DNA of 64,000 nt, from IMG/VR virus record IMGVR_UViG_3300023176_002545. One strand, given 5' to 3'. The DNA comes from a virus. Below the pieces are notes generated by a model. The model was given only the letters and a program-made list of their open reading frames with translations, was not told the DNA's origin and searched no databases. Shown piece after piece: positions 22,386 to 47,720 of this stretch (position 1 is its first letter; each line of letters begins with the position of its first letter). Both the position numbers and the translations under genes were made by a program.

Positions 22386-22730
22386 ATGGATCCAAGATTA
22401 GAAAAAGTTCTAGAAGATGTAAATCATATACATTCAATCAACAATCAAAAAAGATTGCTCAAAGAAAAGTATTACGAAGACAGGGTAGTGTTTTCTAATG
22501 GTGGAAAATTTACAGTAACAGATTCTTTTATTGCTTTTGTTAAAGAAGCATCTGCTAACGGAATTATACATTTTATAGATGATAACGATATTCCTGTTGA
22601 GATTGAAGATGTAGACACTTTCTACAACACAATCGTTAACACATATAAAACAGCCACAACACAGTACTATCAAAAGTATAACGCTTTAGTTGAAAGTTCT
22701 AGGAATATAGAGGAATTGCTGTCAATATGA
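22386..22730 (+). CDS. Hypothetical protein, 114 aa
   Basis: GAGG SD; ATGA overlap with the next gene. Confidence 0.7.
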   Translation: MDPRLEKVLEDVNHIHSINNQKRLLKEKYYEDRVVFSNGGKFTVTDSFIAFVKEASANGIIHFIDDNDIPVEIEDVDTFYNTIVNTYKTATTQYYQKYNALVESSRNIEELLSI

Positions 22731-23584
22731 CCACAGGCGTTTTGTTATTTGCATATAACAATACCGCGATTGATTATGTTAAACAAGCAATATACAATGC
22801 AAAACTTGTAAAAAAGCATCTCAATCTTCCGGTAGTTATTGTTACAGATAGTGTTAACTATCTTGAAAAGGCTTTTCCTTTTTATAAGAAATATGTTGAT
22901 CAAGTAATCTTTAAAGATACTGATAAAACCTTTCAAACTAGAGAGTTCTTTGGCGGCGAGCATTTTTCAACAAAAGCAGAATGGAAAAATGTTAATCGAG
23001 GAACAGCATATGATATATCTCCATTTGATACAACAATAGTATTAGATACTGACTATCTAATTAACAATGACAACCTTTTAAAAGTAATTGATCAGCCAGA
23101 CGACTTATTCATATACAAAGATTCTTGTGATATTTCATATGCTAGACAACTCAAAGGTCTAGAAAGAATATCAGATGATACGTTAGATTTTTACTGGGCT
23201 ACAGTATTAGTTTTTAAGAAAACAGAAAGAACTAAAAAGTTGTTTGATCTAGTAAATTGTATTAAACGTCACTATCACTACTTTAGAACTCTTTATAGAA
23301 TAACACCTAAATTGTATAGAAATGATTATGCATTTAGTATTGCTATACACATACTAAATGGATATCAAAAAACAGAGTGGCCAAAACAACCTCCTGGAAA
23401 AATGATATATTCTAGTCCTGCTGATGATTTAATTAGTATAAAAGATGAAAAGTATATATTTGCACTTGGACACGACAAACGTCCAGACAAAGTTAACATA
23501 GTTACAGTTGAAGATCTTAATTTACACGTTATGAACAAGTTACATTTAAACGATTTAATTACTTGGGAGTTTGATCTTGAGTAA
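22727..23584 (+). CDS. GT-A fold glycosyltransferase-like protein (GT8-like), 285 aa
   Basis: SPFDTTIVLDTDYL DxD motif, FYWATVLVF, late RNDYAFSIA and LHVMNK segments resembling GT8. Confidence 0.6.
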   Translation: MTTGVLLFAYNNTAIDYVKQAIYNAKLVKKHLNLPVVIVTDSVNYLEKAFPFYKKYVDQVIFKDTDKTFQTREFFGGEHFSTKAEWKNVNRGTAYDISPFDTTIVLDTDYLINNDNLLKVIDQPDDLFIYKDSCDISYARQLKGLERISDDTLDFYWATVLVFKKTERTKKLFDLVNCIKRHYHYFRTLYRITPKLYRNDYAFSIAIHILNGYQKTEWPKQPPGKMIYSSPADDLISIKDEKYIFALGHDKRPDKVNIVTVEDLNLHVMNKLHLNDLITWEFDLE

Positions 23585-24350
23585 AGGATTTTTAATTTTT
23601 GCACAACCAAACGGAAAAACGGATTATGTTGCACAAGCAGAACTGCTAAAAGCAAGTATTAAAAAATACTGCAACATTAATGATGTTACTATTATTAGTG
23701 AGTTTGAAGAAGATCATGCAAAAAACAGTGAGTGGAAAATAGAAAATCGTTGGAAAGCCTACGAGCTTAGTCCTTATGATGAAACTATTGTACTAGATGC
23801 AGACATGTTGTTTTTTAGGAATGTTGACGATTGGTGGGATAAGTTTTCTAACTATGATATGTTTTTTACTACTGATGTGCTAACATATAGAAAAGAAATA
23901 GCAACTAGCGTTTATTATAGAAAAACATTTATAAAAAATAAATTGCCAAATATCTATACAGCATTTTATTATTTTAAAAAGACACCAAAGACTGAAGCAG
24001 TGTTTAAATTGTTAAAAAGTATTACACTTAATTGGAAGACCTATTATAACATATACCTAAAGAGCATGTTTCAGTCAGGACAGAGTTTTGATTTGAACAT
24101 GGCTCTTGCAATATACATACTAGGTTTAGAAAACGAAACGTCAGATAAAACATTAGTTCCTACGTTTATACATTTAAAACCAAAAATGCAAAATTGGGAT
24201 AAACCTTCAGACAGTGCTGTTGATAGAATACCAGTATATCAATTTGATGATAAACTTATGCTTGACAGTTATATGTTAAATGACATATTGCACTACGTTG
24301 AAGATAAGTTTGTCACTTCTGAAGTCAAGGAGTTTTTTAATGTTAGCTGA
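23571..24350 (+). CDS. GT-A fold glycosyltransferase-like protein (GT8-like), paralog of 22727; TTG start (23571 or 23577)
   Basis: SPYDETIVLDADML DxD motif; FDLNMALA; FIHLKP. Confidence 0.6.
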   Translation: MILSKGFLIFAQPNGKTDYVAQAELLKASIKKYCNINDVTIISEFEEDHAKNSEWKIENRWKAYELSPYDETIVLDADMLFFRNVDDWWDKFSNYDMFFTTDVLTYRKEIATSVYYRKTFIKNKLPNIYTAFYYFKKTPKTEAVFKLLKSITLNWKTYYNIYLKSMFQSGQSFDLNMALAIYILGLENETSDKTLVPTFIHLKPKMQNWDKPSDSAVDRIPVYQFDDKLMLDSYMLNDILHYVEDKFVTSEVKEFFNVS

Positions 24351-24867
24351 TAGACTTAAAGAAGTTTTAGAAAATCAAAGAAAACTTGCAACGCAAAAGT
24401 TTTATGTTTCTTTTGATGAAACAGGGAGAATAACAAGTGTATTTGCAAGCTCAGATGAACCACCGGAAAATTCTGTTGAAATAGATACTACTTTAGCAGA
24501 AGGATTTTTAAGTGGCACAGTGATGAAAACAAAATACACTGTTGCAAAAATTGGTGATAGTCATCAACTTCAAAAAGTAGAACAGCAGTTTAATCTAACG
24601 TCTGGTTCTTCTTTTTATAAAGCACCTGTTGCTAAACAATTAGTTACTCTATTGATTAACAAAAATAAAAATATGCTAACTGTGTTAAACGGAGACAACC
24701 TTGATGGCTCAGCAGTTTTTTATATTTGTGAAAAAAATTGCTTCCATAAACTTAAACAATCTTTAGTATATGATCCTGTAACAAATGTTTATGCATTAAA
24801 TGCAACTGAAAATATTGACATTTACATTCCTGCACACATAAGAAATGTAGGAGTTCAATATGAGTGA
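24340..24867 (+). CDS. Hypothetical protein, 175 aa
   Basis: Start moved to ATG 24340 (AAGGAG SD at 24327-24332); overlaps both neighbours. Confidence 0.6.
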   Translation: MLADRLKEVLENQRKLATQKFYVSFDETGRITSVFASSDEPPENSVEIDTTLAEGFLSGTVMKTKYTVAKIGDSHQLQKVEQQFNLTSGSSFYKAPVAKQLVTLLINKNKNMLTVLNGDNLDGSAVFYICEKNCFHKLKQSLVYDPVTNVYALNATENIDIYIPAHIRNVGVQYE

Positions 24868-26206
24868 TTTTAAATTAAGACTAACTGACTTTGATTTTTA
24901 TTTTTTAGATCAAGGAAGTCCTAATGCAGAAGAAAATTTTTATGATCTAAAAAATAAAATACCTTGGGCTCAGAGGACTTCTAAACTTCCTAAAAAAGAT
25001 TATTTTGTAATAACGGACGACTCAAAACTAAACGATAAGTTTTTAAATCAACCTTTAATTTTTGAAGAAGCAGTAAGAAATGCTACAATTAACTGGCACA
25101 ACAAAAGTATAGTAAATCATTTGACATACGAAACATCTGGTGTGCAGTGGAAAGGCGGAACAGATTTTAGTTTTACTATTGATCATCCAGGTGCAGAAGT
25201 ATATCATGCAGATACGCCTGAACAAGCATACGAAAGTGCCTATAAAGAAATTAAAAATATTCTTGATGGAAAATCATTAGCAAATATTACAGAAGCCGAA
25301 CGCAAAAGAATTTTGATATGGAACTATCTAGGTCTTGATACAGAGAACGGTGATGCTTGTATAAGAGGTGCTCGTGCTGCTTGTAAAGAAATGCTGAGTT
25401 TAACTGAGTGGGCATCTTTGCCTATTGGTTCTCCTTTAACTACATTGCAGTGTCATTTTTATAAAATGGTATACAAAAGCCCTCATAGAATCAGCGGCAA
25501 CATAAAAGAAAACGAAGTTAGTCGTTATGACATTGTGTTTATAAGTTATAATGAGCCTAATGCAGAAGAAAACTGGCAATCATTAAAAGCACGTTTTCCA
25601 AGAGCTCAAAGAGTACACGGAGTAAAAGGTATACATCAAGCACACAAAAAGGCCGCAGAACTGTGTACTAGTCCAATGTTTTGGGTGGTAGACGGTGATG
25701 CAAAGATTGAAGAAGAGTTTAGGTTTACATATAAAGTACCAGATGTTGAATTAGATTTTGTACATGTATGGAGAAGTCGTAATCCTGTTAACGATTTAAT
25801 ATATGGATATGGCGGAATTAAATTATTGCCTAGAGAACTTACATTGAATATGAATATAGATACTGCGGATATGACAACAAGTATTAGCAGCAAGTTTAAA
25901 CCTATGCCTATTGTATCTAATGTTACAGCGTTTAATACTGATCCTTTTAACACTTGGAAAAGTGCATTTAGAGAATGTGTAAAACTAGCGTCACGCTCTA
26001 TTGACAGACAGCATGATGAAGAAACCGAATACAGACTAACACAGTGGCAGTTTGAAGGAAATAAAAGACGTTATGGAGAATACGCACAAATGGGTGCAAA
26101 ACAAGGTCAAGAATACGGTGAAGCTAATGCTGATAAACCTGAAGCACTTAAAAAGATAAACGATTTTGATTGGCTTAAAGAGAGGTTTGAAAATGAAAAT
26201 ACGTGA
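24860..26206 (+). CDS. Glycosyltransferase-like protein (GT-A/GT2-like) with a degenerate N-terminal duplicate domain, 448 aa
   Basis: C-terminal half YDIVFISYNEPNAEENW..L...FP.A.RV.GV.G...AH..AA...FWVVDGD; the N-terminus repeats the same opening (FYFLDQGSPNAEENFYDLK..IPWAQR). Confidence 0.55.
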   Translation: MSDFKLRLTDFDFYFLDQGSPNAEENFYDLKNKIPWAQRTSKLPKKDYFVITDDSKLNDKFLNQPLIFEEAVRNATINWHNKSIVNHLTYETSGVQWKGGTDFSFTIDHPGAEVYHADTPEQAYESAYKEIKNILDGKSLANITEAERKRILIWNYLGLDTENGDACIRGARAACKEMLSLTEWASLPIGSPLTTLQCHFYKMVYKSPHRISGNIKENEVSRYDIVFISYNEPNAEENWQSLKARFPRAQRVHGVKGIHQAHKKAAELCTSPMFWVVDGDAKIEEEFRFTYKVPDVELDFVHVWRSRNPVNDLIYGYGGIKLLPRELTLNMNIDTADMTTSISSKFKPMPIVSNVTAFNTDPFNTWKSAFRECVKLASRSIDRQHDEETEYRLTQWQFEGNKRRYGEYAQMGAKQGQEYGEANADKPEALKKINDFDWLKERFENENT

Positions 26207-27104
26207 TATTGATATTATCTATTTGTCATATGACGAACCTAATGCAGATGAAAACTATGCCGATCTGCTTAAAAAAGCACCTTGGGCTAAACGTGTACAC
26301 GGCGTAGAAGGATCAGATGCCGCACACAAAGCCTGTGCAGAACTTGCAGAAACAGAACGATTTATTACTGTTGACGGTGACAATAAAATTTATGCTGACT
26401 TCTTAGAACAAGAAATAGATTTTAAACAACATCCTTATATGAAAAATGCTGTACTAAGTTGGTGCGGATATAATGTAATCAACGGACTTATGTACAGCAA
26501 TGGCGGTTTAAAATGTTGGCCAAAAGATGTTGTACTAAACATGAAAACACATGAAGCAAGTGAATCAAACGATATTGCTGCTCAAGTAGAATTTTGCTGG
26601 AACTTGGATTATATACAAATGAATAGTTGTTATTCAAAGGTATATAATAACGCTACACCTGCACAAGCATGGAGAGCAGGCTTCCGTGAAGGTGTTAAAA
26701 TGTGTTTGGACAGAGGTCGAAAGTTTAACAGTATAACATTCAAAGATGAAGTCTACTGGCAGAATCTGCATAGACTAATGATATGGCAAATGGTAGGTGC
26801 AGATGTTGAACATGGTATGTGGGCAATATATGGAGCACGATTAGGTTGTGTAATGACTAATCTTGAAAATTGGGATTATGTACAAGTTAGAGATTTTAAG
26901 TACCTAAATAGTCTATGGGAAGAAATAACTCAAGATGTAGATGATACTAATATATTGTGGAAAGTAAGAAAGTTAGGATTTAGACTACAGCAAGAATTAG
27001 GATTGCCTGTTGACTTGCCGTTTACTAGAATTCAAAGCGAAATGTTCAAAGACAGTTATACAAATACAGATCGCACAGGTCAAGGATTTATTGATGTTGA
27101 ATAA
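26193..27104 (+). CDS. Glycosyltransferase-like protein, paralog of the C-terminal domain of 24860
   Basis: DIIYLSYDEPNADENY..L....PWAKRVHGVEG..AAH..CA...FITVDGD; start moved to ATG 26193. Confidence 0.55.
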   Translation: MKIRDIDIIYLSYDEPNADENYADLLKKAPWAKRVHGVEGSDAAHKACAELAETERFITVDGDNKIYADFLEQEIDFKQHPYMKNAVLSWCGYNVINGLMYSNGGLKCWPKDVVLNMKTHEASESNDIAAQVEFCWNLDYIQMNSCYSKVYNNATPAQAWRAGFREGVKMCLDRGRKFNSITFKDEVYWQNLHRLMIWQMVGADVEHGMWAIYGARLGCVMTNLENWDYVQVRDFKYLNSLWEEITQDVDDTNILWKVRKLGFRLQQELGLPVDLPFTRIQSEMFKDSYTNTDRTGQGFIDVE

Positions 27105-28479
27105 ACTAGTAAAAAAATTTGCTAGACAGCTAAAGATTGTAAAAGATCCTATTGACCGTATGACTGAAGTAAAAGAAATTACGGATAAAGTTTCTCCTAC
27201 ATTTTGTTTGGCAAAATGGCATCACACTACAATATATTTACAAACAGGTGAAACGCATAGTTGTTATCATCCTGCACCGCATATTATTCCCTTACACGAA
27301 CTTGAAAACAATCCTAGTGCCCTACACAATACAGTAGAAAAGAAATTACAGCGACGAGAAATGATGGCAGGACTAAAACCTAAAGGGTGTCAGTACTGCT
27401 GGAATATAGAGTGCATGGGCAAAGACTATGTAAGTGACAGGCATGAAAGAAATGCTGGAATCTATACAAAAGAACGATTAGCAGAAATTGTAGACAATGA
27501 TTGGGACTTTAATATTAATCCAGAGTATATTGAAGTTTCATTTGGTAATGAGTGTAATTTAAAATGTGGATACTGTCATCCTAAAGCAAGTAGTAGTTAC
27601 TTTAAAGAAATAGAAGAATATGGCCCTTATGATATGGTTAAAAACCATTCATTTGATACCCGCCGTATGCGTATATACAAAAAGGAAGAAGAAAACCCTT
27701 ATGTACAAGCATGGTGGGACTGGTGGCCCCAGGTAAGTAAAACGCTGAACATATTACGCATTACAGGAGGTGAGCCACTTTTGCAACAGAGTACTTGGCG
27801 TTTGCTTGAGGACCTATCCGAGAATCCTCGTCCTAATCTTGAAATCAATATTAACAGTAATCTTGCTGTTAAAAATATACTTGTAAAACGTCTTGCAGAA
27901 AGGGTTAACAAGTTAATTGAAGAAAAGAAAATTAAACGGTTTAAATTGTTTACTAGTATGGACACTTGGGGAACACCTGCAGAATATATTAGAACTAACT
28001 TAGACTTGTCTGTTTGGGAAAAGAACTTTGATACATGGATGACACAAACAGATCAACCTATTACATTTATGGTTACATTTAATGTGTTGTGTGTAACTAC
28101 ATTTAACAAACTGCTTGAAAAGTTTTTAGAGTGGAGACAGAAATATCAAACTGGTACAAGACGCATACGTTTTGATACACCTTATCTAAAAGAACCTTTG
28201 CAGTACGATATGAATATACTTCCTAAAAGTTTTATGAGTTATATGGAAAGTCATTTAGAATTTATCAAAAGCAATCTAGATGACTATGACGTAAACAAAT
28301 TTACAAAACTTGAATATGAAAAGTTTCGTCGTGTTGTAGATTACATGCGTACTACAAACTATGACGAAGAAACCTTAGATATAGGACGAAAAGATTTTGT
28401 TGCTTGGTTTAAAGAACATGATAGACGTCGAGGAACAAATTTTGCTAAAACGTTTCCTGAATTACATGGTATTTTTTGA
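27094..28479 (+). CDS. Radical SAM enzyme (#1) with N-terminal Twitch/SPASM-like Cys module
   Basis: CNLKCGYC, GGEP; N-terminal FCLAKW...SCYH...CQYCW; start at ATG 27094 with AAGGA SD. Confidence 0.9.
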   Translation: MLNKLVKKFARQLKIVKDPIDRMTEVKEITDKVSPTFCLAKWHHTTIYLQTGETHSCYHPAPHIIPLHELENNPSALHNTVEKKLQRREMMAGLKPKGCQYCWNIECMGKDYVSDRHERNAGIYTKERLAEIVDNDWDFNINPEYIEVSFGNECNLKCGYCHPKASSSYFKEIEEYGPYDMVKNHSFDTRRMRIYKKEEENPYVQAWWDWWPQVSKTLNILRITGGEPLLQQSTWRLLEDLSENPRPNLEININSNLAVKNILVKRLAERVNKLIEEKKIKRFKLFTSMDTWGTPAEYIRTNLDLSVWEKNFDTWMTQTDQPITFMVTFNVLCVTTFNKLLEKFLEWRQKYQTGTRRIRFDTPYLKEPLQYDMNILPKSFMSYMESHLEFIKSNLDDYDVNKFTKLEYEKFRRVVDYMRTTNYDEETLDIGRKDFVAWFKEHDRRRGTNFAKTFPELHGIF

Positions 28480-29691
28480 TGGATACGTTGGGTCGTTGAT
28501 TAACTGATTACCTAAGTAATTTTGAGCAGATTCGATAAGTCTTAAAAATTCACTAATTGTGTAATCATTATAATCAGCAAATTTATAATTGTAGTCTAAT
28601 AAATCTTCATTTTTTAATGACCAATCAATTTGTTGTGAACGTGTCATTTTAGAAAGCATAGTACACACACGAACTATTTCTTTTTCTAATTTATTCCAGC
28701 GTTTAACAATGTCTGGTTCAAAGTCAAACTCGTAGTCAAACCAATCAGTGTATAATTTATAACCTAGTCTTTGAAGATTATAGTTTTGTCCTGTTTGTCC
28801 CCATATAAGCACAGGTGTTTTACATACGATAGGTTTAAAAGTTTTTTCGCTATAGAATAAACTAGTTTCTCCCCAATCACTTTGCATAGTTTCAGAAGTG
28901 AGATTAAACAATACTTGATTTTGTAAACCTACTCCTAAATCGTCAGCCCAGTTAGTTTCAAAGTCGGTTGTATCTGCAATAAGAGGAGTAACCCTTGTTA
29001 GAGTTTGTTCCATTTCTTTAGTAAAAAATTTGTTGGCTTTATATTCTTTTGGGTTTAATCGGTCATGACTAAGCAAACCATACTGTGCTACACCTGCTTC
29101 GTGCAGCCTCCAAGTACAATAACTACGCCAAAATCTATTACGTCTAGTTAAGTTAAGATAAAACTTTCCTTGATAGTTTTGTTCTAAACTTTGTCTACGG
29201 CTAAATCTTCTTTTGCCTTCTGTCATCATAACTTTTTGAAAAGTATCCCAATGCATAATTTCAATAATGTTGATAGGATAGTAATCACCGTGTGTGATAT
29301 GGAAATTTTTAAAATTTGCTTTTTCTCTAAGATTTCCGCTTAAGAAAAATATAGCAGATGGATCTATGTTATTTTTTATTGCACTATTATATAATGCTAT
29401 AGCAACGCTTTGATGTTCTGGTGCCCAACCTTCGTGTGTACCATCTAATATAAAGATACATTTTCTTTGTCGTAACATATCAAGATAAAATGGTTTTATT
29501 GAGCTAAACACATCTGTATCTGTATCAAAAGGAGCATCATAGGAATAGTGTGCAAACAGGACAGTTATACTATTATAAGATCCTTTTTTAAGTAGAGGTA
29601 TATGTTTTTTATAGTGATAAAAGCAGCCAATCTCACTTGGGCACTCTCTAAAATATTTGGTGTTGATAAGCCAGTCTGTTAGGTGTTGCAT
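28462..29691 (-). CDS. GT-B glycosyltransferase-like protein (GT10/fucosyltransferase-like motif), 409 aa
   Basis: FNLTSET...FYSEKTFKPI..KTPVLIWG resembles the GT10 F.L.FEN...Y.TEK....P...G donor-binding motif; divergent from ugd. Confidence 0.45.
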   Translation of the reverse strand: MQHLTDWLINTKYFRECPSEIGCFYHYKKHIPLLKKGSYNSITVLFAHYSYDAPFDTDTDVFSSIKPFYLDMLRQRKCIFILDGTHEGWAPEHQSVAIALYNSAIKNNIDPSAIFFLSGNLREKANFKNFHITHGDYYPINIIEIMHWDTFQKVMMTEGKRRFSRRQSLEQNYQGKFYLNLTRRNRFWRSYCTWRLHEAGVAQYGLLSHDRLNPKEYKANKFFTKEMEQTLTRVTPLIADTTDFETNWADDLGVGLQNQVLFNLTSETMQSDWGETSLFYSEKTFKPIVCKTPVLIWGQTGQNYNLQRLGYKLYTDWFDYEFDFEPDIVKRWNKLEKEIVRVCTMLSKMTRSQQIDWSLKNEDLLDYNYKFADYNDYTISEFLRLIESAQNYLGNQLINDPTYPSKNTM

Positions 29692-29702
29692 TGAAAATCC
29701 AT

Positions 29703-29729: not shown

Positions 29730-29741
29730 TGAAGGTACAAT

Positions 29742-30872
29742 ATGAGAATAGCATTTATTGGTTTAGGAAAACTAGGACTACCCTGTGCAGAAGAAATAGC
29801 CAAGAGCGGTCACATAGTTTCAGGATATGATATTGTTGAATGCAATACAAATAACGTCAAACAGTTGCCAACAATACAAGAAACTGTAGAAGGTCAAGAG
29901 ATTGTATTTGTTGCTGTACCAACGCCACACGACCCTGCATATGACGGTAGAGCTCCTACAGCACACCTAGAGCCAAAAGATTTCAGTTACGATATTGTTA
30001 AAGACGTTTTAACAGAATGTAACAAGCACATGAACAAAGACCAACTGCTTGTTTTAATCAGTACAGTGTTACCTGGAACAACTCGTAGAGAATTTATTAA
30101 TTTAGTACCTAATACACGATTTGTGTATAATCCGTATTTGATTGCTATGGGCACAGTTGCATGGGACATGGTAAATCCTGAAATGGTAATGATTGGAACA
30201 GATGATGGCAGTGAAACAGGTGACGCAAAACAGTTGGTAGACTTCTACAAAACTGTAATGCAAAATGATCCACGTTACGTTATTGGTACTTGGGACGAAT
30301 GTGAAGCAATCAAAGTTTTTTATAATACATTTATTAGTACAAAGATTGGACTAGTAAACATGATACAAGATGTTGCACAAAAGCAAGGCAACATCAATGT
30401 TGATGTAGTTACCAAAGCACTAGCAGAAAGTTCGCAACGTATCATGGGTCCTAGTTATATGAAGGCAGGCATGGGCGACGGTGGTGCTTGTCATCCTAGA
30501 GATAATATTGCACTACGTTACATGGCAAAAAATCTACATTTAGGATACGACATTTTTGATAGTATTATGAACGCTAGAGAAATACAAGCACGTAACATGG
30601 CTATTGAAATACTCAAATATGGAAACAAAGTACAGTTTAGTAGTGACAGTTATAAACCAGGTGTAGAATATATAGACGGCAGTTATAGTTTACTAGTACA
30701 GCATTATGTTAAAGAATTAGGTGGCTGGATAGTAGATAAAGATCCTAGCGTATTTGTAAGAGTACATGATACAGATGCAGTACCTGAAAATGTTACTGTT
30801 TTTGACCCTTGGCGTAATTATGAGGGCCAAAATCCTGTAGTACACTATGGAAATACTAGACACAGCAAGTGA
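29742..30872 (+). CDS. ugd: UDP-glucose/GDP-mannose 6-dehydrogenase family protein
   Basis: Rossmann IGLGKLG, VAVPTP, STVLPGT, YNP, EAIKVFYN, catalytic GxGDGGACHPRD. Confidence 0.9.
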   Translation: MRIAFIGLGKLGLPCAEEIAKSGHIVSGYDIVECNTNNVKQLPTIQETVEGQEIVFVAVPTPHDPAYDGRAPTAHLEPKDFSYDIVKDVLTECNKHMNKDQLLVLISTVLPGTTRREFINLVPNTRFVYNPYLIAMGTVAWDMVNPEMVMIGTDDGSETGDAKQLVDFYKTVMQNDPRYVIGTWDECEAIKVFYNTFISTKIGLVNMIQDVAQKQGNINVDVVTKALAESSQRIMGPSYMKAGMGDGGACHPRDNIALRYMAKNLHLGYDIFDSIMNAREIQARNMAIEILKYGNKVQFSSDSYKPGVEYIDGSYSLLVQHYVKELGGWIVDKDPSVFVRVHDTDAVPENVTVFDPWRNYEGQNPVVHYGNTRHSK

Positions 30873-40341: not shown

Positions 40342-41236
40342 TCGCAACCTTTGTTAACGGAATGTCAGCAGCACAAGTACACCATTTGCGTGTACAAATA
40401 ACTGCTTCTTCAGGCGGTTCAAATGATCCATCGTATATATTTCCCAAACTTCCGCCTACTCTGCAAGTAGCTCGATGCACATCACCATCCCAATTAATCA
40501 TTAAACTCTCTAATCCTGCATTACAAGTCCAACCTTCAAACTGATTACGTTGTTCTTTAATAATATCATTAGCGTGTGCAAGTTCTTCATCGTCAATAAC
40601 GCAGTTTTCTTTGGCAGTAGACTTTTGATCTAGTATCCAACGCAGATCTTTTTCTTTATATTTCATGTCATCAAACCAATCGTGCTTTTCTGTCCAGCGT
40701 ATACGTCTAACAACATAAGGAATATTGTGGCCGTCAAACATCATTGCACACTGTTTTACTCTGTCCATGTGTTCGTGATGTGCCATTAGATTAACTTGAT
40801 AAGGAATATTCTTTTCAATTTCGTTTAGTTGTGACCAATGAAGTATATTGTCAGCACATCGACGCCAATTTTTATCATCTTCTACATGCAAACTAAACAC
40901 ATAATGACTTACAGGAAGTCTATTATATAGTTCTGGCGGCAGTGTTGCATTGGTTGTTATGTTAACCCAATCTAATCGTTGGCTAGCGTGTTCAACAATT
41001 TCTTCTATATCAGGATGCACACAAGGCTCACCACCTGTTAAACTTAGTCTAATAGGTTTACCTATTTCATAGAGTGCGTCTATTACATCTAGCATAACTT
41101 TAACATTGGTATGTGGACTAAAGTTGTCATGTATTTCCGCAGGACAATAGGTACAATCTAAATTACAGCGTTTACCAATGTTCCATTCAACATGAATACT
41201 GTCTTGATGATCCCATCTGCTAGTTATTGAATACAT
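40328..41236 (-). CDS. Radical SAM enzyme (#9) with C-terminal Twitch-like module
   Basis: CNLDCTYC, GGEPC; FEGWTCNAG...ATC...CTRKWCTC. Confidence 0.9.
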   Translation of the reverse strand: MYSITSRWDHQDSIHVEWNIGKRCNLDCTYCPAEIHDNFSPHTNVKVMLDVIDALYEIGKPIRLSLTGGEPCVHPDIEEIVEHASQRLDWVNITTNATLPPELYNRLPVSHYVFSLHVEDDKNWRRCADNILHWSQLNEIEKNIPYQVNLMAHHEHMDRVKQCAMMFDGHNIPYVVRRIRWTEKHDWFDDMKYKEKDLRWILDQKSTAKENCVIDDEELAHANDIIKEQRNQFEGWTCNAGLESLMINWDGDVHRATCRVGGSLGNIYDGSFEPPEEAVICTRKWCTCAADIPLTKVANDTN

Positions 41237-42036
41237 TCTACGCCCTTAACTTTATTAAATGATTTTAAGTATTCTATATCTATACCATTTACAGCTAAGT
41301 CTGCAACAGGAATCATACCTAAATTTATATTCTTAAATGTAAAAGATTGTAATTTAAGCCAAAGTTTTATATATGCTTTTCTTATAGCATACAACCAATA
41401 AGGAATAGTAGGACCAAACTTAACCATAAAATCTGCACTATAATATTCTTGTGGTCTAACACCTTGTGCTATGCTGTCTTTGTCTTTAAAAACATCTAAT
41501 ACAGTTTTACCTACTTGACAGTAGTTAATATAAACAGTACCATGTGTCCATCTAAATGTAAAGTGCTTCATATCTTCTTCTGTTAGATTTATTATAGGTC
41601 TGTCTTTGAATGTAACAACTACAGTAGGATGATTTTTTGTTCTAAGTTCTGCTTCTAGTTTGTGTATTAGTACATTAAATCGTTCAACTGCTTCTTGTGC
41701 TTCACTAGGTGCAGTATTAAACCACTCTGTTCCTTTATCTACTTCGCCGCGTAGGTCTTCAAAGAACTTGTGTAAGTAGTTTAAATCTCCTTGCATATCA
41801 GTGCTTGCACTACTAATATATCGATCAATACAAACTCCATGTTGATTTATTTTAGTAATACACTCATTAAGTTCTGGAATAAGATTTTGTGTACCCCAAT
41901 TAGTAAATCTATCTGTTTCGTAAAGCTCGTAATTTTTCAACAGTTCCTCAAACCATTTTTTAGCAATGCTAGTATTTCTTACAGTGAAAGGTATACTAAC
42001 ATTTTCCTTGTCATTTGTCAATACCAAATTAAACAT
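41224..42036 (-). CDS. Hypothetical protein, 270 aa
   Basis: Start moved to ATG 42036, overlapping the upstream stop; embedded between radical SAM genes; no recognisable motif. Confidence 0.65.
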   Translation of the reverse strand: MFNLVLTNDKENVSIPFTVRNTSIAKKWFEELLKNYELYETDRFTNWGTQNLIPELNECITKINQHGVCIDRYISSASTDMQGDLNYLHKFFEDLRGEVDKGTEWFNTAPSEAQEAVERFNVLIHKLEAELRTKNHPTVVVTFKDRPIINLTEEDMKHFTFRWTHGTVYINYCQVGKTVLDVFKDKDSIAQGVRPQEYYSADFMVKFGPTIPYWLYAIRKAYIKLWLKLQSFTFKNINLGMIPVADLAVNGIDIEYLKSFNKVKGVECIQ

Positions 42037-43297
42037 ATGGAGCAAACTCCGGATTAGTAGCAAGAAAATCCTGTCCACGAGTTGCGTCTAAACGTTTATT
42101 AAATTCAATACAGTCAGCCCAGTGTGTGTCGTGCATATCTTTTGCTTCTAAGAAGTTTATGTTGTCTTGTATTTGTTGTAGAGTAACTTGTTTTACAATA
42201 TCGTGTTCTTTTACAAGTTTGTATTCAAGCACCTTATGCTTCATTTGCTCAAGGCGATTAACTATACCTGTCTTTAATAACTTTGGTAGTACTTGTGCAG
42301 AAAGTGCCATTGGATAGTTTACACGATGCGAGTAAAATATAATGCCCATTTCTTCTAAAAAGTATTCTATTACTTTGTCAATCTGCATAATGTTATTTGC
42401 TTGTACAGTAAACGCACCAACTACACGACTTACATTAGGAAATGATTTAAAAACTTTTACGTTTTCTTCTATTTCGCTAAACTTGCCATTGCCTCTAATA
42501 TATTCGTAGACATCGTGTATGCCGTCTATGCTTACATTTACAGCAATGCTTTTAAACTTAGGCCAATAGTCGTGTATAGTACGTCCGCCTTTAATGCCTA
42601 GTGTAGTTCCGTTTGTAGCATACTTTAATTCTATTTGATGACCATACTCTGCAAGTTTGTCTAGTATCTTGTAATGATATGGATCCATTAGAGGTTCGCC
42701 ACCGGCAAACTCTACTCTACGGAAGTACGGTAATAGTTTTTCAAAACTTGTCCACCAATTGTCACTATTGTCAAACGGACCAATATATTGACCTGGAACA
42801 TCAACTAATTTTTGAACAGTAGGTACAAGATAGTTTTCTTCCTTTTCATAAAATTCTGTAACTTGATCCCAATCTTTCCAACTTGTGCTGTCCAAAGGAT
42901 TGCACATACGACACTTCAAATTACATAAATTATTGAGTTTGATTTCCATTGTAGGAAGCTCAAATGGCATGCTATAATCTTCGTTTAAAGCGTCTAGTGC
43001 ATCAGGGTATAAGTTGACCCTTGCTTCTGGTATAACACCCGCTGTATGACGCTGTCGTAAGCTCTGTACACCCTGATCTTCAAGGTCAAAGCACGGTTTG
43101 CATACATCTGGACGCTCGTTATTGAGAACTTGTTTTCGAACAAGTTTCATTGCATCCGAATTCCATGCTTCTTCTAAACTTTGATTTTGGATCCATGCAA
43201 TTGGCTGACTGCGACAGCACACTTTAATTGCACCATCTTCTCTAGTTGCCAATCCAGTAAATGGATGCATACAAAATGTACAACTATTTGATTTCAT
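42029..43297 (-). CDS. Radical SAM enzyme (#10) with N-terminal Twitch/SPASM-like module
   Basis: CNLKCRMC, GGEPL; N-terminal FCMHPF...KVCC...CKPCF. Confidence 0.9.
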   Translation of the reverse strand: MKSNSCTFCMHPFTGLATREDGAIKVCCRSQPIAWIQNQSLEEAWNSDAMKLVRKQVLNNERPDVCKPCFDLEDQGVQSLRQRHTAGVIPEARVNLYPDALDALNEDYSMPFELPTMEIKLNNLCNLKCRMCNPLDSTSWKDWDQVTEFYEKEENYLVPTVQKLVDVPGQYIGPFDNSDNWWTSFEKLLPYFRRVEFAGGEPLMDPYHYKILDKLAEYGHQIELKYATNGTTLGIKGGRTIHDYWPKFKSIAVNVSIDGIHDVYEYIRGNGKFSEIEENVKVFKSFPNVSRVVGAFTVQANNIMQIDKVIEYFLEEMGIIFYSHRVNYPMALSAQVLPKLLKTGIVNRLEQMKHKVLEYKLVKEHDIVKQVTLQQIQDNINFLEAKDMHDTHWADCIEFNKRLDATRGQDFLATNPEFAPYV

Positions 43298-43302
43298 ATC
43301 AA

Positions 43303-43346
43303 TATTTACCGTAATTAAACTAGCAGTTTATTAGAAGCGATAAGTA
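43303..43346. promoter_or_regulatory. Back-to-back motifs: TAAATA (-, 43308-43303) and TAAGTA (+, 43341-43346)
   Basis: Each motif is exactly 5 nt from its ATG (43297 and 43352); no SD present. Confidence 0.55.
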
Positions 43347-43351
43347 CTACT

Positions 43352-44017
43352 ATGTTAACAAAAACAGGTATATTAGTAGATACAGATAAAATTATTGACT
43401 GTTTGCCAACAATGGACGTAGGCAAGCACGAGTTATCAACGCCAACTGGAGACTTCTTTTACGATCCTTGGCAACTAAAACCAGAATATGTTGGAACAGA
43501 ACTAGAAGTATTGTTTAACAGATTAGAACGTCCGGGGCAAGTTAGAGTAAATGTACTAAAAGAAGGACATTGTTATCAACAGCATTCTGATATAGATGAT
43601 AGATATCATTTGTCATTAGATGGTGTAGAGTGTTACCTAATAGATCTTAGCAACGGACAAATGTTTCCAACAACCAAAGACCATCACGTATATGAAATGG
43701 ATGCTGGCCGTTTACACAGTGCAGCAAACTTTGGTTATTATCCAAGATGCCAACTTGTAATACGCAAATTATTACAGCGTAATAAATTATCCAATCCTGT
43801 TAGTGTTGCATTAAAAGCAACACCTGTACCTAGATTGCGTTACAACTTTGATCAAACATTTAGTGTATGGCTCAACAAGTCAAACAAATTAGGAACTATC
43901 AGCAACTTTAATAAACGCAGTGAAACACATATAAGTTTTGATATAGAGTCTGCTAATCTTAATGAAGTAGAACAACTTGTTGATCAAAGTGGATTACCTA
44001 TTGAGATTATTTTATGA
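43352..44017 (+). CDS. 2OG-Fe(II) oxygenase / Asp-Asn beta-hydroxylase-like protein, 221 aa
   Basis: YQQHSD...RYHL...GRLHSAAN: HxD...H facial triad in a DSBH pattern. Confidence 0.65.
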   Translation: MLTKTGILVDTDKIIDCLPTMDVGKHELSTPTGDFFYDPWQLKPEYVGTELEVLFNRLERPGQVRVNVLKEGHCYQQHSDIDDRYHLSLDGVECYLIDLSNGQMFPTTKDHHVYEMDAGRLHSAANFGYYPRCQLVIRKLLQRNKLSNPVSVALKATPVPRLRYNFDQTFSVWLNKSNKLGTISNFNKRSETHISFDIESANLNEVEQLVDQSGLPIEIIL

Positions 44018-44556
44018 AAACTTTAGAAAAATATCATAACGGAGTGCTTGGTCCTGTAAGTGCTTTGTATGAAGCACGATACAATGACTATTGTATGTTT
44101 ATACAGTTTAAAGATAAATTTTGGTTTGACAGAGAAATGCAATATTACAATGAACTCAAAGGCAAACCTTACTGTTATAAAATGTTAGAAGTTGACAAGT
44201 CGCAGTTACTAATATCTTATGGTTATCAAAAAAATCTAAATCATTTGATTTATGAAAATGCTTCAATAGAATTTGACTACAAACAAGAAGTTAGAAAAAT
44301 ATTAGACGATTTAGAACAACAAGGTATAAAAAAGATTAATGTATATCCACACACATTTTTTGTAGAAGACGGCCAATTAAAAATATCAGACTTATACGGA
44401 TGCACTACAAAGTTTACACTAATACCGCAAGAAATGTTAGGTAACATAATAAATGATGAACAAAGATTTAAATTTATAGACGGATATCTTGATTGTGAAG
44501 CATCGTATGATTATACAATTAAAAACAGTACAAACTATTGGCCGGAGGAGATTTAA
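44014..44556 (+). CDS. Protein-kinase-like fold protein with degenerate catalytic loop, 180 aa
   Basis: WFDREMQYY (alphaC-like); GIKKINVYPHTFFVEDGQLKISDLYG aligns to HRDLKPEN...DFG. Confidence 0.5.
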   Translation: MKTLEKYHNGVLGPVSALYEARYNDYCMFIQFKDKFWFDREMQYYNELKGKPYCYKMLEVDKSQLLISYGYQKNLNHLIYENASIEFDYKQEVRKILDDLEQQGIKKINVYPHTFFVEDGQLKISDLYGCTTKFTLIPQEMLGNIINDEQRFKFIDGYLDCEASYDYTIKNSTNYWPEEI

Positions 44557-45101
44557 TGGCAGAGTTTATTGGAATATGTGACACAATAGACTGGCAAGGA
44601 TTGCTAGAAAAATTAATGCAAGAAGAAGCAGGCTATGTAGGACCTAGACACGATGTAGGCATGGATGTGCCTGGCATTGAAGAAGTGGGCGGTCCTTTAC
44701 GTGCAGCAGGATACAAAATGGACCACGAAGGTGGCAATATGCGTTGGGATATGCTGTTACCAGGCGAACAGTTTGACCAATCTATTGCAGATAAGTTCTG
44801 TGAGTTTGTAGGCATGGACAGTTATATTAATTGTTGGATTAGTCGTGTAAAGCCAGGCGATGTTGCACCTTGGCATTGGGACGTTACAGATGATGAAAAA
44901 ACACTTGAAGCAGGTAAACCCCTGCAACGTTATCATTGTCATGTGAGCGGACCTGAAGATGGTCATACACTTATTGTAGGCGATACTTGTTTGTACAAAC
45001 AACCACAAGGTGCAGTATGGAAGTGGCCTGATCGTAAAAGTTGGCATGCTGGTGCAAATGCAGGACTAGTGCCTAAGTATCTGTTTAACATTTGGGGATA
45101 A
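44556..45101 (+). CDS. 2OG-Fe(II) oxygenase / beta-hydroxylase-like protein
   Basis: ISRVKPGDVAPWHWD...RYH...WHAGANAG; start at ATG 44556. Confidence 0.7.
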   Translation: MAEFIGICDTIDWQGLLEKLMQEEAGYVGPRHDVGMDVPGIEEVGGPLRAAGYKMDHEGGNMRWDMLLPGEQFDQSIADKFCEFVGMDSYINCWISRVKPGDVAPWHWDVTDDEKTLEAGKPLQRYHCHVSGPEDGHTLIVGDTCLYKQPQGAVWKWPDRKSWHAGANAGLVPKYLFNIWG

Positions 45102-45102: not shown

Positions 45103-45688
45103 ATGAAAGCAATAATAACTGGAGCAAGTTCCGACATAGGAAAACTTATAGTAGATCATTTTGATTTTGATTGGGTTCCTGTTGATAGAACACACGGTAT
45201 TACTTTGCCAGATGATGCTGACATGATAAAAGAAGCAATAAGACATAGTGATTTATTTTTTAACATTGCACAGTTTGATACAATACAATCTGATTTGTTA
45301 GCAATGGTTTGGAATGTTTGGAATATGCAAGAAAACAAAACTCCTAAAAAAATTATTAGTTTTGGTAGTATAGTTACAGAAATGTCCATGCAAACTATTT
45401 TAGATCTTAATGACTTTGATTATTTTAATAGAGCTAGAAAAGAGTGGATATATTGCAGAAAAACTTTTGTTAAACAAAACACACGATGAGTACAAAAATC
45501 TTCATCTTACAGGATATAACAAAGGCTACGCTTTACCTCAAAGCATACTAATTAAACTTGGAAATGTTCTTTACAAAGAACTAAGAAGTCACGAACCATA
45601 CACAACAGCTGAACAACTACTTAATGCTATTGATTATGTTGTTAACAATGAAACGTATATTAGTGATTTAGAGTTACGCTGGAATTAA
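45103..45688 (+). pseudogene. Short-chain dehydrogenase/reductase split by a +1 frameshift
   Basis: Frame 1 (45103-45489) carries the Rossmann motif IITGASSDIG and KIISFGS. Frame 2 (from about 45410-45452 to 45688) carries YIAEK (YxxxK) and an SDR-like C-terminus. Confidence 0.65.
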
Positions 45689-46179
45689 ACAAACTCAGTA
45701 ACTTGTAAAACAAATCTTGGTGTAAATCCTATATTAGCAGCACCGTGATTATCTTGTGCAACATCATATACAAAAACATCACCAGCACGATAGTTTGTTA
45801 TTAGCTCGTCTTTGATAATAAACACATGGCCTGCTTCATAGTCCTGTAATGGCATCCAATAGCGTTTACAATTATTTTTTAGTGTTGGGGGATCTTCGTG
45901 CATAGGCATAATATCCCCAGGCATCATTTTTGTAATCCACCAATGAATTTTTCCTGTACACCATGGAGGTGTTATTTGCATAGGAATATCTTGAGATTCA
46001 AATATGTGCCAGTAAGTTGCTGTTAAATCATATCCAGCATTTACACCATGATTGTAAGTTTCGTATTCGTCTAAAGAATGTTTGGGTATGTTATTAGGTC
46101 TTGGTTGCCCTTTGTTAGACAACAAATAATCTATTAATCCGTTAGGAATAATGTCTATGTAATTTCCAACATAATGCAT
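45685..46179 (-). CDS. 2OG-Fe(II) oxygenase / beta-hydroxylase-like protein, 164 aa
   Basis: TKMMPGDIMPMHED...RYW...NHGAANIG..PRFVLQ. Confidence 0.7.
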   Translation of the reverse strand: MHYVGNYIDIIPNGLIDYLLSNKGQPRPNNIPKHSLDEYETYNHGVNAGYDLTATYWHIFESQDIPMQITPPWCTGKIHWWITKMMPGDIMPMHEDPPTLKNNCKRYWMPLQDYEAGHVFIIKDELITNYRAGDVFVYDVAQDNHGAANIGFTPRFVLQVTEFV

Positions 46180-46988
46180 TAGTAACTCTCTAGATGACTA
46201 ATACCTAGTACTTTTCTAAACTCAGGAGTAAAAGTACAGTCAACACGTAGTCCGTATTCAACTTCATTTGAATGTTCACCACCATGCCAGTCTTGATCGT
46301 TCCAAAACGCAGCATTAGAATTTATGTAGTGTTTGTTTTGTGTTTCTGGATCCCATATATAGAATCCACGTTTTGTACGATAGCGAATGTGTATAAACTC
46401 GTTAGTGTGATTGCTGTATCCTTGATCGTTACCGTTCTTGCCATCTAAGTCTCTGTGTTCAAAAGCATGTCCATTATGGTCACAGTGAAAGAATATAACA
46501 CGACCTATACGATCAATTATATTTTCAGTAACTAAGTTTTCAACCCACTTAACAACACCTGGAAAGTATTGCTGTTCTTCTGTAGGTTTACGTTCTGCAT
46601 TGCGTTCATCCCAGGAACCTTCTTCCCAAAGGAAGTAATAAATGTAAGGGTCATTTGCACCCATTGCTCCTTTGAGATAGCGTGTAAATGTGTTACGTTG
46701 TTTGTAGTCTTTAAAATCTGTAGGAAATATTTCACTTCCTTGTACACGAATAGGATGATCTTCTGGAAGTGCTTGATACTCTGCAAATGCTTGATATATA
46801 GGTTTCCAGTTTAAAATGTAGCTCATGTCGTCAAATTTAAAACCCGGCGACATCCATGTTCCTTCTTTTGCATACTCACGTGCAAGTGCAAACCCTTTAC
46901 ATATTTCAGGGTGCAGGTCTCTAAATCCTTTTATATCTAAGTAAGGATCTAAATCTATATAGGGTTTCCCACCAATTCCTCTTATCAT
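46179..46988 (-). CDS. 2OG-Fe(II) oxygenase-like protein, 269 aa
   Basis: HAFEHRD...FIH...DWHGG...LRVD; N-terminal extension. Confidence 0.55.
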   Translation of the reverse strand: MIRGIGGKPYIDLDPYLDIKGFRDLHPEICKGFALAREYAKEGTWMSPGFKFDDMSYILNWKPIYQAFAEYQALPEDHPIRVQGSEIFPTDFKDYKQRNTFTRYLKGAMGANDPYIYYFLWEEGSWDERNAERKPTEEQQYFPGVVKWVENLVTENIIDRIGRVIFFHCDHNGHAFEHRDLDGKNGNDQGYSNHTNEFIHIRYRTKRGFYIWDPETQNKHYINSNAAFWNDQDWHGGEHSNEVEYGLRVDCTFTPEFRKVLGISHLESY

Positions 46989-46993
46989 GTTAA

Positions 46994-47010
46994 TACTTAT
47001 CAGGTAAGTA
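46994..47010. promoter_or_regulatory. Back-to-back TAAGTA motifs (- at 46999-46994; + at 47005-47010)
   Basis: Each is exactly 5 nt from its ATG (46988 and 47016) in a 27-nt divergent gap. Confidence 0.55.
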
Positions 47011-47015
47011 TGTAT

Positions 47016-47720
47016 ATGAACAACGAGTTTGAATACTATTATAACAATGTACCGGGCAAAGGCTTGTGCAGAAACAACTTAATCTACACAAGTCTTATGA
47101 ATGATGAACAAACAGTGTTTTGTCAATGGTACCACAATGATAGCGAATACCATAAAGGTAAAAATGAAGTAGTTGATCCTGCAAAGATGGACGAGAAGTG
47201 GAGACGCGAAGTTAGCTTCTTAAAACGTATGCAAGAAAACTATCCACAACACGTACCTGAAATACTTGATATAGATTATACTGAAAAGAAAATAATGCTT
47301 CGTGTTGAAGGTCCAGATTTTTGGGAACAGGCAGGCTGCTTAGAAGAAAACTACAACAGCGTTCTTCCAGACTGGAAAGAGCAGATGCTTGAAATAACAC
47401 AGGCACACAAAGACTTAGGCATATACAAATACAGTATGCATCCTAGCAGTTACTTTGTAGTAGACGGCAAGCTCAAAAGTATTAACTATTTCTTTGCTTA
47501 TGATGAGCGTGAACCAGGCATAACAGTGCGTAGTGTACTAAGCCATATAAGTGAAGATAGACGCAAAGAGCTATTGCCTAAGATGGAATCTATGGGCATA
47601 GAACTAGATAAAATTGCTGATTTGCATATGCTACAGCACCTTTGCTTTGCTAGTTTTAGTAATAATTACCCTGCAGACTTTATACAAAAATCCAAAGAAA
47701 TATACCAAGATATGGTATAA
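47016..47720 (+). CDS. Protein-kinase-like fold protein with degenerate catalytic motifs (start 47016, or 47010)
   Basis: KWRREVSFL, HVPEILDID, GIYKYSMHPSSYFVVDGKLKSINYF; paralogous to 44014. Confidence 0.5.
   Translation: MNNEFEYYYNNVPGKGLCRNNLIYTSLMNDEQTVFCQWYHNDSEYHKGKNEVVDPAKMDEKWRREVSFLKRMQENYPQHVPEILDIDYTEKKIMLRVEGPDFWEQAGCLEENYNSVLPDWKEQMLEITQAHKDLGIYKYSMHPSSYFVVDGKLKSINYFFAYDEREPGITVRSVLSHISEDRRKELLPKMESMGIELDKIADLHMLQHLCFASFSNNYPADFIQKSKEIYQDMV

Follow-up and report, generated by a model that had tools for sequence, protein, structure and literature searches.

A conserved radical SAM island behind the tail-fibre genes of an uncultured jumbo phage as a possible pathway for glycan building and tailoring

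We analysed a stretch of 64,000 nucleotides (the window) from the IMG/VR virus record IMGVR_UViG_3300023176_002545, in which a block of 30 genes at positions 22386-47720, hereafter the island, encodes ten radical S-adenosylmethionine (SAM) enzymes directly behind the tail-fibre genes. The ten enzymes belong to three ancient families, and part of the island is a core whose gene order is conserved in many related phages. Tentatively, we read the island as a cytoplasmic system for building a glycan and tailoring it by radical and oxidative chemistry, probably on the virion fibres.

CxxxCxxC motifs were counted in all six frames of the whole window, in open reading frames (ORFs) of at least 150 amino acids (aa). 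Exactly ten occurrences were found, all within 27553-42925. Each of the ten proteins matched PF04055 (Pfam), eight of them above the gathering cut-off of 29.5 bits. The two that fell below it were the product of 27010-28479 (26.7 bits), which is secured as a radical SAM protein by its match to NF033640, and that of 37029-38081, which is secured by paralogy to 39280-40347 (29% identity, E = 2e-54). The motif count and the PF04055 search called for in the initial annotation of this DNA thus agree with its count of ten radical SAM proteins, which is correct and beyond chance.

In place of one recent expansion, blastp, NCBIfam and a phylogenetic tree divide the ten enzymes into three ancient families. 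The four family-A proteins (A1, A2, A3a and A3b in Table 1) are full-length members of NF033640, the N-terminal-twitch radical SAM subfamily (N_Twi). They score 290 to 390 bits against a cut-off of 170 bits, compared with 34 to 44 bits for the other six. C31, C50, C106 and C109, upstream of C163/C167/C170, are invariant in the four paralogues, and Pfam SPASM matches lie at the N-terminus of two of them. The five proteins of family B (B1 to B5), grouped by blastp and alignment, have the CxxxCxxC motif near the N-terminus and a C-terminal module F-K-G-W-x-C...C...C...C, whose cysteines C271, C293, C327 and C332 are invariant in seven sequences, two of them bacterial; Pfam SPASM was not detected in this family. 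The third family, S, is a singleton (32915). In a tree of 68 family-A proteins, A1 and A2 each formed one well-supported phage clade, with short branches for A1, and the two A3 copies grouped among sequences from Bdellovibrionota and Leptospiraceae. The paralogues are therefore distinct and of long standing, and recent duplication does not explain them.

None of the ten proteins reached the cut-off of a functionally named family in NCBIfam. Generic matches below cut-off were obtained to MoaA, QueE, viperin, AhbC/NirJ and maturases of peptides, including RiPPs (peptides made on ribosomes and then modified post-translationally). A1 had no match in PDB sequence searches, and those of B3 and S were generic (viperin, MoaA or Tes). 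No characterised member of the N-terminal-twitch family appeared among the NCBIfam matches, the PDB matches or the literature searched. These generic matches agree with the earlier statement that no characterised pathway of such a composition was known to its author. The only Pfam domains on the ten proteins were radical SAM, Fer4_12 and SPASM, plus a sub-threshold AEP_C962R match on 32915-33982. Pfam found no RiPP recognition element (RRE, PqqD-like) on them, although remote RREs might escape such a search. No small ORF resembling a precursor is conserved within the core or next to it, where gene packing leaves no space; the small-ORF clusters c33 and c43 lie outside it, and c43 resembles IF-1. 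With neither a conserved precursor gene nor, in Pfam, an RRE, an interpretation as a RiPP cluster was rejected.

A search of IMG/VR with B3 as the query yielded 132 stretches, 80 of which were kept as loci, and their ORFs were clustered to define the core. It consists of about 12 genes, the main ones present in about 50 to 68 of the 80 loci and the flanking ones less often. Orthologues of the methyltransferase gene MT were found in 68 loci, of S in 63, of B1 in 56, of B2 in 50, of the PP-loop ATPase gene PP in 41 and of U41, at the same position, in 18. The core is laid out as B2-MT-S-A1 on one strand and PP-A2-(U41)-B1-B3 on the other, with O1, O2, O3, X and K2 in the flanks; PP heads the PP-A2-B1 operon in relatives. 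In the closest relative, a 160-kb contig (G001), synteny runs all the way from the giant fibre gene to K2, with 40 to 98% aa identity. Among the 80 loci themselves, fibre homologues gave one weak match only, the fibre synteny being seen from the longer G001 stretch. The conserved linkage supports the proposal that the genes form a dedicated multi-step pathway. The number of ten radical SAM genes, taken at first as unusual, is not exceptional within this phage clade (median 6, maximum 10 per 21 kb). As a separate observation, a related 281-kb IMG/VR contig (G003) has two distinct radical SAM islands, at C1:144-152 kb and at 230-259 kb, in which about ten N_Twi genes exceed the cut-off.

Relatives add further genes, which in several of them sit inside the core operons: short-chain dehydrogenases/reductases (SDRs), P4H-type (PF13640) and AspH-type (PF05118) oxygenases, a B12-radical SAM protein and a nucleoside diphosphate (NDP)-sugar 4,6-dehydratase/epimerase (cluster c16). 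Genes of c16, of cluster c25 (see below) or ugd lie inside or directly beside radical SAM operons in relatives, and of the 28 loci that have the core and measure 20 kb or more, 19 contain a recognisable sugar gene.

A1 is the most conserved gene of the island, with more than 4000 database clusters and best identities of 74 to 90%; A3a has more than 7500 clusters. Across phages whose B3 orthologues drop to 27% identity, A1 remains 74 to 90% identical, a constancy in keeping with a small substrate common to all of them, for example a nucleotide-sugar. No near-identical DNA was found in cultured phages, and when A1 was compared by tblastn with 50,697 phage records, three weak matches resulted, all to jumbo phages. 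Judging from these comparisons, no cultured phage carries the core. Its accessory proteins had no match in PHROGs. The structural proteins of the window match those of Rak2/GAP32/Atu_ph07-type jumbo phages, the relatives measure about 350 kb by CheckV estimates, and one of them has a Gp23-type capsid gene.

Positions 1-22324 of the window are filled by giant structural and fibre ORFs. Their tail-fibre matches in PHROG uphold the placement of the island directly after the tail-fibre genes, and minus-strand replication genes follow it. The island genes overlap or abut, with intergenic gaps of at most 55 bp in the core, and we read them as six units. No membrane-span-like segment occurs in any of the 30 island proteins, and Pfam scans found no Wzx/Wzy/WaaL-type gene in the island; the chemistry is therefore cytoplasmic.

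The sugar genes were analysed by structure prediction and profile comparison. The AlphaFold2 (AF2) model of 26193-27104 (pLDDT 85.8) has a GT-A fold. Foldseek gave 66 PDB matches at E < 1e-3, and among the matches listed nearly all were GT-A glycosyltransferases, with a few GT-A-like nucleotidyltransferases; they include TarS, TarP, WrtF, RmlT, K4CP and A64R of the chlorovirus PBCV-1. The DxD motif (D61xD63) is invariant, and a PDB sequence search with the GT-A profile gave no match. By blastp, 24860-26206 is a tandem duplication of the 26166-27104 domain, and one of its domains is about 60% identical to the 224-aa c25, the product of a gene adjoining B2 in relatives. The family profile of 22727/23571 matched glycogenin (GT8; E = 8e-6), the aligned region being that of nucleotide binding and the DxD motif (LDxD). 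Four of the five genes initially listed as glycosyltransferase-like are thus supported as GT-A enzymes, whereas the fifth, 28462-29691, offers a weak GT10 lead: its GT10 neighbours in Atlas features, at 0.78-0.79, are sub-threshold, and its fold occurs in phage clusters (Atlas) fused to an epimerase or a methyltransferase. The ugd annotation of 29742-30872 holds at the family level, with PF03721 (63 bits) and PF00984 (62.9 bits) above their Pfam cut-offs; the C-terminal dehydrogenase domain went undetected in Pfam, and the NCBIfam subfamily model TIGR03026 scored 138 bits, below its cut-off of 189.8 bits.

Four HxD..H oxygenases had been proposed. O1 is supported by its profile, which matched Cpz10, an iron/2-oxoglutarate-dependent (Fe/2OG) beta-hydroxylase from the biosynthesis of caprazamycin, a Streptomyces nucleoside antibiotic (PDB 7v4f, PMC9814697), at E = 1e-15 over about 100 residues of the catalytic core; H78, D80 and H122 are invariant. 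X is supported by its fold: the AF2 model (pLDDT 82.5) is prolyl-hydroxylase-like, H178, D180 and H235 are invariant, and nearly all of the matches listed among 77 Foldseek matches at E < 1e-3 were Fe/2OG oxygenases, including the PBCV-1 prolyl hydroxylase vCPH. X and O1 showed no relation by hhalign. O2 and O3 are candidate oxygenases by their motif, the HxD..H triad being invariant in a 17-sequence alignment; the O2 profile had no PDB sequence match.

The remaining accessory enzymes could be assigned less closely. K2 matched the kinase domain of TTK weakly (E = 4e-5), and its family consensus has HPSS and INYFF at the places where HxD and DFG would be expected. K1, which has no family match, is linked to K2 by blastp only (E = 4e-4 over 40 aa). 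Of the two proteins annotated as kinase-like, K2 thus keeps a weak fold profile but lacks the catalytic Asp, and K1 is tied to it by that weak match. To judge from these residues, both are probably pseudokinases or catalyse other chemistry. PP, initially a QueC-like ATPase, fails the QueC threshold and remains a PP-loop ATPase: its PF06508 match covers residues 155-228, the C-terminal Zn motif only, and its N-terminus gave weak PP-loop matches to TilS and NAD synthase in NCBIfam. For the predicted methyltransferase, the Methyltransf_25 and PrmA matches stay below threshold, with Rossmann-type motifs visible. The GNAT-like assignment of 31889-32320 comes down to a sub-threshold PF05292 match. 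This ORF has no homologue in the 80 loci, and B2 and MT are direct neighbours in a close relative (L004); a recent insertion seems to have brought it into an otherwise conserved operon. The SDR-like motifs are present, but the gene is split by a frameshift: ORF1 aligns to residues 1-104 and ORF2 to residues 101-151 of an intact 168-aa homologue in L004. A pseudogene, an error of sequencing or programmed frameshifting could each explain the split. For the unannotated accessory proteins, Pfam (E up to 5), PHROGs and NCBIfam gave nothing usable.

RRTAARTA boxes (TAAATA/TAAGTA) are arranged back-to-back at the divergent junctions 43297/43352 and 46988/47016, at both of which they lie exactly 5 nucleotides (nt) before the ATG, a leaderless layout. 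The RRTAARTA-N5-ATG pattern has four matches in the window, against 0.8 expected, all at these two junctions. In relatives, the box heads 77% of O1 genes, 65% of PP, 55% of K2 and 48% of X, compared with about 7% of other ORFs and about 0 to 5% of most operon-internal genes. The T4 late promoter is TATAAATA. By analogy, the boxes suggest late, leaderless expression of the island. A further divergent junction, 29691-29742, between 28462-29691 and the ugd-like gene, contains a near-perfect palindrome, TTAAATACTCAGTTAACTGAGTATTTAA, whose TAAATA boxes are separated from either ATG by about 38 nt, unlike those at the leaderless junctions downstream.

We looked for the same enzyme families in bacteria. 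Family A is almost missing from ordinary genomes: it did not exceed the NF033640 cut-off in any of 14 control genomes. It is expanded in predatory Bdellovibrionota, with about 16 copies in a 1.9-Mb Bdellovibrionales metagenome-assembled genome (MAG; G004), about 13 in another MAG and 5 in Halobacteriovorax marinus. In the tree, these arrays are lineage-specific tandem duplications. Those of G004 (C1:792-803 kb, 1068-1073 kb and 1083-1093 kb; loci L081, L087 and L110) consist of 3 to 7 N_Twi genes of near-identical length with spacers of about 60 bp, and those of L087 and L110 are closed by a B2-like radical SAM gene whose product is 44 to 45% identical to B2. Another Bdellovibrionales locus (L085) has S copies 30 to 32% identical. 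An 879-aa ORF beside a Bdellovibrionales array was considered as a fibre and rejected, as it is an S9 peptidase. The only family-A gene of a Lysobacterales MAG lies in a different setting (L083:5317-14626), a compact series of genes for, in this order, a GT4 glycosyltransferase, two PhyH dioxygenases, an FGE-domain (FGE-sulfatase) protein, the radical SAM enzyme, a CBM4_9 protein and a GT87 glycosyltransferase. By its gene content, this locus independently repeats the trio of radical SAM enzyme, Fe/2OG oxygenase and glycosyltransferase, and it may serve as a simpler bacterial model for radical SAM-plus-oxygenase chemistry.

These results can be combined into a tentative scheme. The island would be a late-expressed cytoplasmic pathway, part of the module for fibres and host recognition in an uncultured jumbo phage of T4 type, about 350 kb in size. 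Its left part (22.4-30.9 kb) would supply and transfer sugars: the ugd-like dehydrogenase would make a uronic acid, and two GT8-like and two TarS/TarP-like GT-A transferases would transfer sugars. The conserved core (30.9-47.7 kb) would be the tailoring part, with three twitch-type radical SAM families, each with one predicted auxiliary 4Fe-4S site, a SAM methyltransferase, a PP-loop ATPase, four putative Fe/2OG hydroxylases, a short SDR and kinase-fold proteins. The core enzymes would activate C-H bonds of nucleotide-sugars or of the glycan once assembled. They might thereby oxidise, epimerise, deoxygenate or C-methylate their substrates, with hydroxylation, methylation and amidation to follow. 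The acceptor we favour is a virion protein, probably the fibres, which would be glycosylated in the cytoplasm during assembly.

We prefer a glycan because of the GT-A folds, the nucleotide-sugar enzymes interleaved within the radical SAM core of relatives and the bacterial glycan locus with family A. The same evidence backs one branch of the initial list of targets, which comprised a glycan, a virion protein surface, a hypermodified base and a small molecule; that the glycan would sit on fibres is what we infer. Several points weigh against this scheme. No enzyme has a characterised close relative, and therefore no reaction is assigned. Oxygenases of the AspH-like and prolyl-hydroxylase-like kinds and kinase folds are just as typical of systems that modify proteins, and the fibres yielded neither a glycan acceptor nor a glycosylation motif. 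Nine of the 28 core-bearing loci have no recognisable sugar gene within 21 kb. The Bdellovibrionales arrays adjoin genes for asparagine synthase, an aminotransferase, SDRs, peptide ABC transporters and RseP as well as housekeeping genes, with no sugar genes. Lastly, the late timing rests on the analogy with T4 late promoters.

The radical SAM enzymes, oxygenases and kinase folds might instead modify side chains of virion or fibre proteins directly, through cross-links, epimerisation or hydroxylation, the sugar genes being a separate module. We consider this unlikely. SPASM/twitch radical SAM enzymes act mostly on peptides and proteins, and the RiPP maturase matches, the resemblance of X to prolyl hydroxylases including the viral vCPH, the AspH and P4H-type genes of relatives and the nine loci without sugar genes would all suit such a role. 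The absence of a conserved precursor-like ORF and, in Pfam, of an RRE-type domain argues against it, as do the fibres, which have almost no Cys and no collagen-like repeats, the motifs sought as thioether or hydroxylase substrates. Moreover, A1 is far more conserved than the fibres, a poor fit with a fast-evolving protein substrate, and the closest solved match of O1, Cpz10, is a small-molecule hydroxylase. A diffusible small molecule or cofactor, nucleoside-type or sugar-derived, for host manipulation or competition between phages is a less probable product still. The gene set does resemble that of a secondary metabolite, with radical SAM enzymes, a methyltransferase, a PP-loop ligase, an SDR, a kinase fold, glycosyltransferases and a Cpz10-like hydroxylase (PMC9814697); all island proteins are soluble, A1, A2 and X are very strongly conserved, and the same families are scattered among predatory bacteria. 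However, neither an exporter nor a resistance gene nor a scaffold-forming enzyme turned up in the island, which lies within the structural module behind the fibres and has late-type boxes, and the GT-A genes and the Lysobacterales CBM/GT87 neighbours point to polymers or glycoconjugates.

Remodelling of the host surface polysaccharide (lipopolysaccharide or capsule) during infection, blocking superinfection, would account for the GT8-like genes and ugd; it has been proposed for the GT8-rich clusters of pelagimyophages (PMC7029224). The altered nucleotide-sugars could enter the host's own export pathway. Nevertheless, we find this improbable: the island encodes no membrane step, flippase, polymerase or ligase, and the late-type boxes suggest expression too late for exclusion. 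We know of no serotype-converting phage with a radical SAM and oxygenase core of this size. Least probable by far is hypermodification of DNA or nucleotides, in which PP might, for instance, act as QueC in a 7-deazaguanine pathway, with radical SAM enzymes replacing or extending QueE chemistry. The weak QueC C-terminal motif in PP and the generic MoaA, QueE and viperin matches would fit, but PP stays below the QueC cut-off with its Zn motif only, no DNA-binding or base-exchange enzyme is encoded in the island and the GT-A folds are of the sugar-to-glycan or sugar-to-protein type. PP belongs to the core in 41 loci, yet TGT/DpdA was unmatched in five relatives, one of them an 80% complete contig, a weak argument as the contigs are fragmentary.

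Table 1. Genes and promoter boxes of the island (positions in the window)
Feature	Coordinates	Strand	Basis
114-aa protein, function unassigned, first after fibre genes	22386..22730	+	No Pfam match
GT8-like (GT-A) glycosyltransferase, paralogue 1	22727..23584	+	Paralogue of 23571; profile A8 vs glycogenin
GT8-like (GT-A) glycosyltransferase, paralogue 2	23571..24350	+	Weak Pfam Mannosyl_trans3; profile A8 vs glycogenin
195-aa protein, function unassigned	24280..24867	+	No family match; 40% identical homologue at same place in G001
Two-domain GT-A glycosyltransferase, internal duplication	24860..26206	+	Both halves align to 26166-27104
GT-A glycosyltransferase, TarS/TarP/WrtF-like fold	26193..27104 (longer ORF from 26166)	+	AF2 model, Foldseek
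Radical SAM A3a, N-terminal twitch	27094..28479 (longer ORF from 27010)	+	NF033640 316 bits; CNLKCGYC
409-aa protein, weak GT10-like lead	28462..29691	-	No Pfam, NCBIfam or PHROG match
Nucleotide-sugar dehydrogenase (ugd-like)	29742..30872	+	PF03721, PF00984 above cut-off
Radical SAM B2, C-terminal four-Cys family, core	30888..31886	+	PF04055 48 bits
143-aa protein, weakly GNAT/MCD-like	31889..32320	+	PF05292 22.3 bits vs cut-off 23.2
Probable class I SAM methyltransferase (MT), core	32317..32922	+	Sub-threshold Methyltransf_25, PrmA; Rossmann-type motifs
Radical SAM S, singleton family, core	32915..33982	+	PF04055 37.4 bits; CQASCPMC
PP-loop ATP pyrophosphatase (PP), specificity unassigned, core	33979..34680	+	PF06508 16.2 bits vs cut-off 22
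Radical SAM A1, N-terminal twitch	34670..36082 (longer ORF from 34598)	+	NF033640 390 bits
Radical SAM B4	36079..37050	+	PF04055 47.7 bits; family B by blastp and alignment
Radical SAM B5, with CCGG insert	37029..38081	+	PF04055 27.6 bits; 29% identical to B3
Radical SAM A3b, N-terminal twitch	38074..39318	+	NF033640 290 bits; 31% identical to A3a
Radical SAM B3, with CCGG insert	39280..40347	-	PF04055 56.7 bits
Radical SAM B1, core	40328..41236	-	PF04055 50.3 bits
U41, about 280 aa, function unassigned, between A2 and B1	41224..42078	-	No family match
Radical SAM A2, N-terminal twitch, core	42029..43297	-	NF033640 335 bits; Pfam SPASM residues 9-69
Back-to-back late-type promoter boxes	43295..43354	.	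GGTAAATA-N5-ATG, GATAAGTA-N5-ATG
Fe/2OG beta-hydroxylase O1, AspH/Cpz10-like	43352..44017	+	Profile A3 vs PDB 7v4f (Cpz10)
Small kinase-like protein K1	44014..44556	+	blastp to 47010-47720 only
Putative cupin-type oxygenase O2	44538..45101	+	Invariant H113, D115, H170
Short SDR-like gene, frameshifted, two overlapping ORFs	45103..45688	+	TGxxxxIG in ORF1, YxxxK in ORF2
Putative cupin-type oxygenase O3, paralogue of O2	45685..46179	-	blastp to 44538 E 4e-9; HxD..H
Fe/2OG oxygenase X, prolyl-hydroxylase-like fold, highly conserved	46179..46988	-	AF2 model, Foldseek
Second pair of back-to-back late-type boxes	46986..47018	.	GATAAGTA-N5-ATG, GGTAAGTA-N5-ATG
Kinase-fold protein K2 without catalytic Asp residues	47010..47720	+	Profile A4 vs TTK kinase domain

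Two further proteins had homologues worth recording. The first island protein (22386..22730) has them at the same place in G001 (49% identity) and in L045 and L052 (38%). Upstream of the island, the 203-aa structural protein of 9568-10179 is 98.5% identical in G001, far above the neighbouring fibres, and shares 55% identity with proteins from two phages of 470-490 kb, Sinorhizobium phage Phosso and Agrobacterium phage Atu_ph07.

A broader reading, which we put forward as doubtful, is that the core is a self-contained pathway exchanged horizontally between aquatic jumbo phages and predatory Bdellovibrionota. It would install a radical-made modification of a new kind, carried by a sugar or by the protein itself, on the apparatus that recognises Gram-negative cells, and the paralogue arrays would diversify its chemistry with host or prey surfaces. 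Environmental relatives of A1 number in the thousands (74-90% identity), none of them in cultured phages, so that abundant aquatic giant phages spend 15-25 kb on uncharacterised chemistry. Should the product decorate the fibres, it would add a new layer of host-range determination and be the first radical SAM-tailored virion modification known to us. The arrays of 5 to 16 N-terminal-twitch paralogues in phages and predatory bacteria are a rich source of C-H functionalising enzymes. Halobacteriovorax marinus, a named species with five members and an assembly labelled 'isolate', may be an experimental entry point, unlike the uncultured phages.

The chlorovirus PBCV-1 and some mycobacteriophages glycosylate their own virion proteins (in the mycobacteriophages, capsid and tail) in the cytoplasm with soluble GT-A enzymes that the viruses encode. 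PBCV-1 proteins are among the fold matches of two island proteins, A64R for 26193-27104 and vCPH for X. The virions of these viruses are glycosylated, whereas glycosylation of the present virion is a prediction, and to our knowledge radical SAM enzymes do not occur in those systems. Among radical SAM enzymes, BtrN and MoaA, twitch-type enzymes of sugars and cofactors, and the SPASM maturases of peptides likewise combine the radical SAM core with one auxiliary 4Fe-4S module; in family A this module is N-terminal, and the cut-offs of those families are not reached. Four island proteins are full-length members of NF033640, a membership that gives no substrate or reaction, and we found nothing specific in the literature on N-terminal-twitch enzymes or jumbo-phage radical SAM islands. 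O1 and Cpz10 share the HxD..H motif and the catalytic core in unrelated pathway contexts.

Among published descriptions, the host recognition cluster (HRC) known from pelagimyophages and cyanomyophages comes closest; it is a large variable island in the structural module bounded by VrlC and gp14 (Zaragoza-Solas et al. 2020, PMC7029224). It has GT8-rich glycosyltransferases, a UDP-glucose dehydrogenase and 'radical SAM cassettes' beside the fibres, and host-surface modification was proposed as its role. Compared by description only, the two are alike in fibre adjacency, gene content and their setting in T4-type aquatic myophages. They differ in that the HRC phages measure 150-200 kb, whereas the relatives of the island measure about 350 kb and the structural proteins of the window are of the Rak2/GAP32/Atu_ph07 type. 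The composition, for which no characterised pathway was known at first, is indeed uncharacterised, but radical SAM cassettes beside fibres had already been mentioned in that paper, which names no radical SAM families, core or function for them. New here are the definition of the core, the three-family structure with its tree, the fold assignments, the finding that all island proteins are soluble and the Lysobacterales linkage. The island is a large and complete example of its type in a jumbo-phage lineage, with uncharacterised enzymology.

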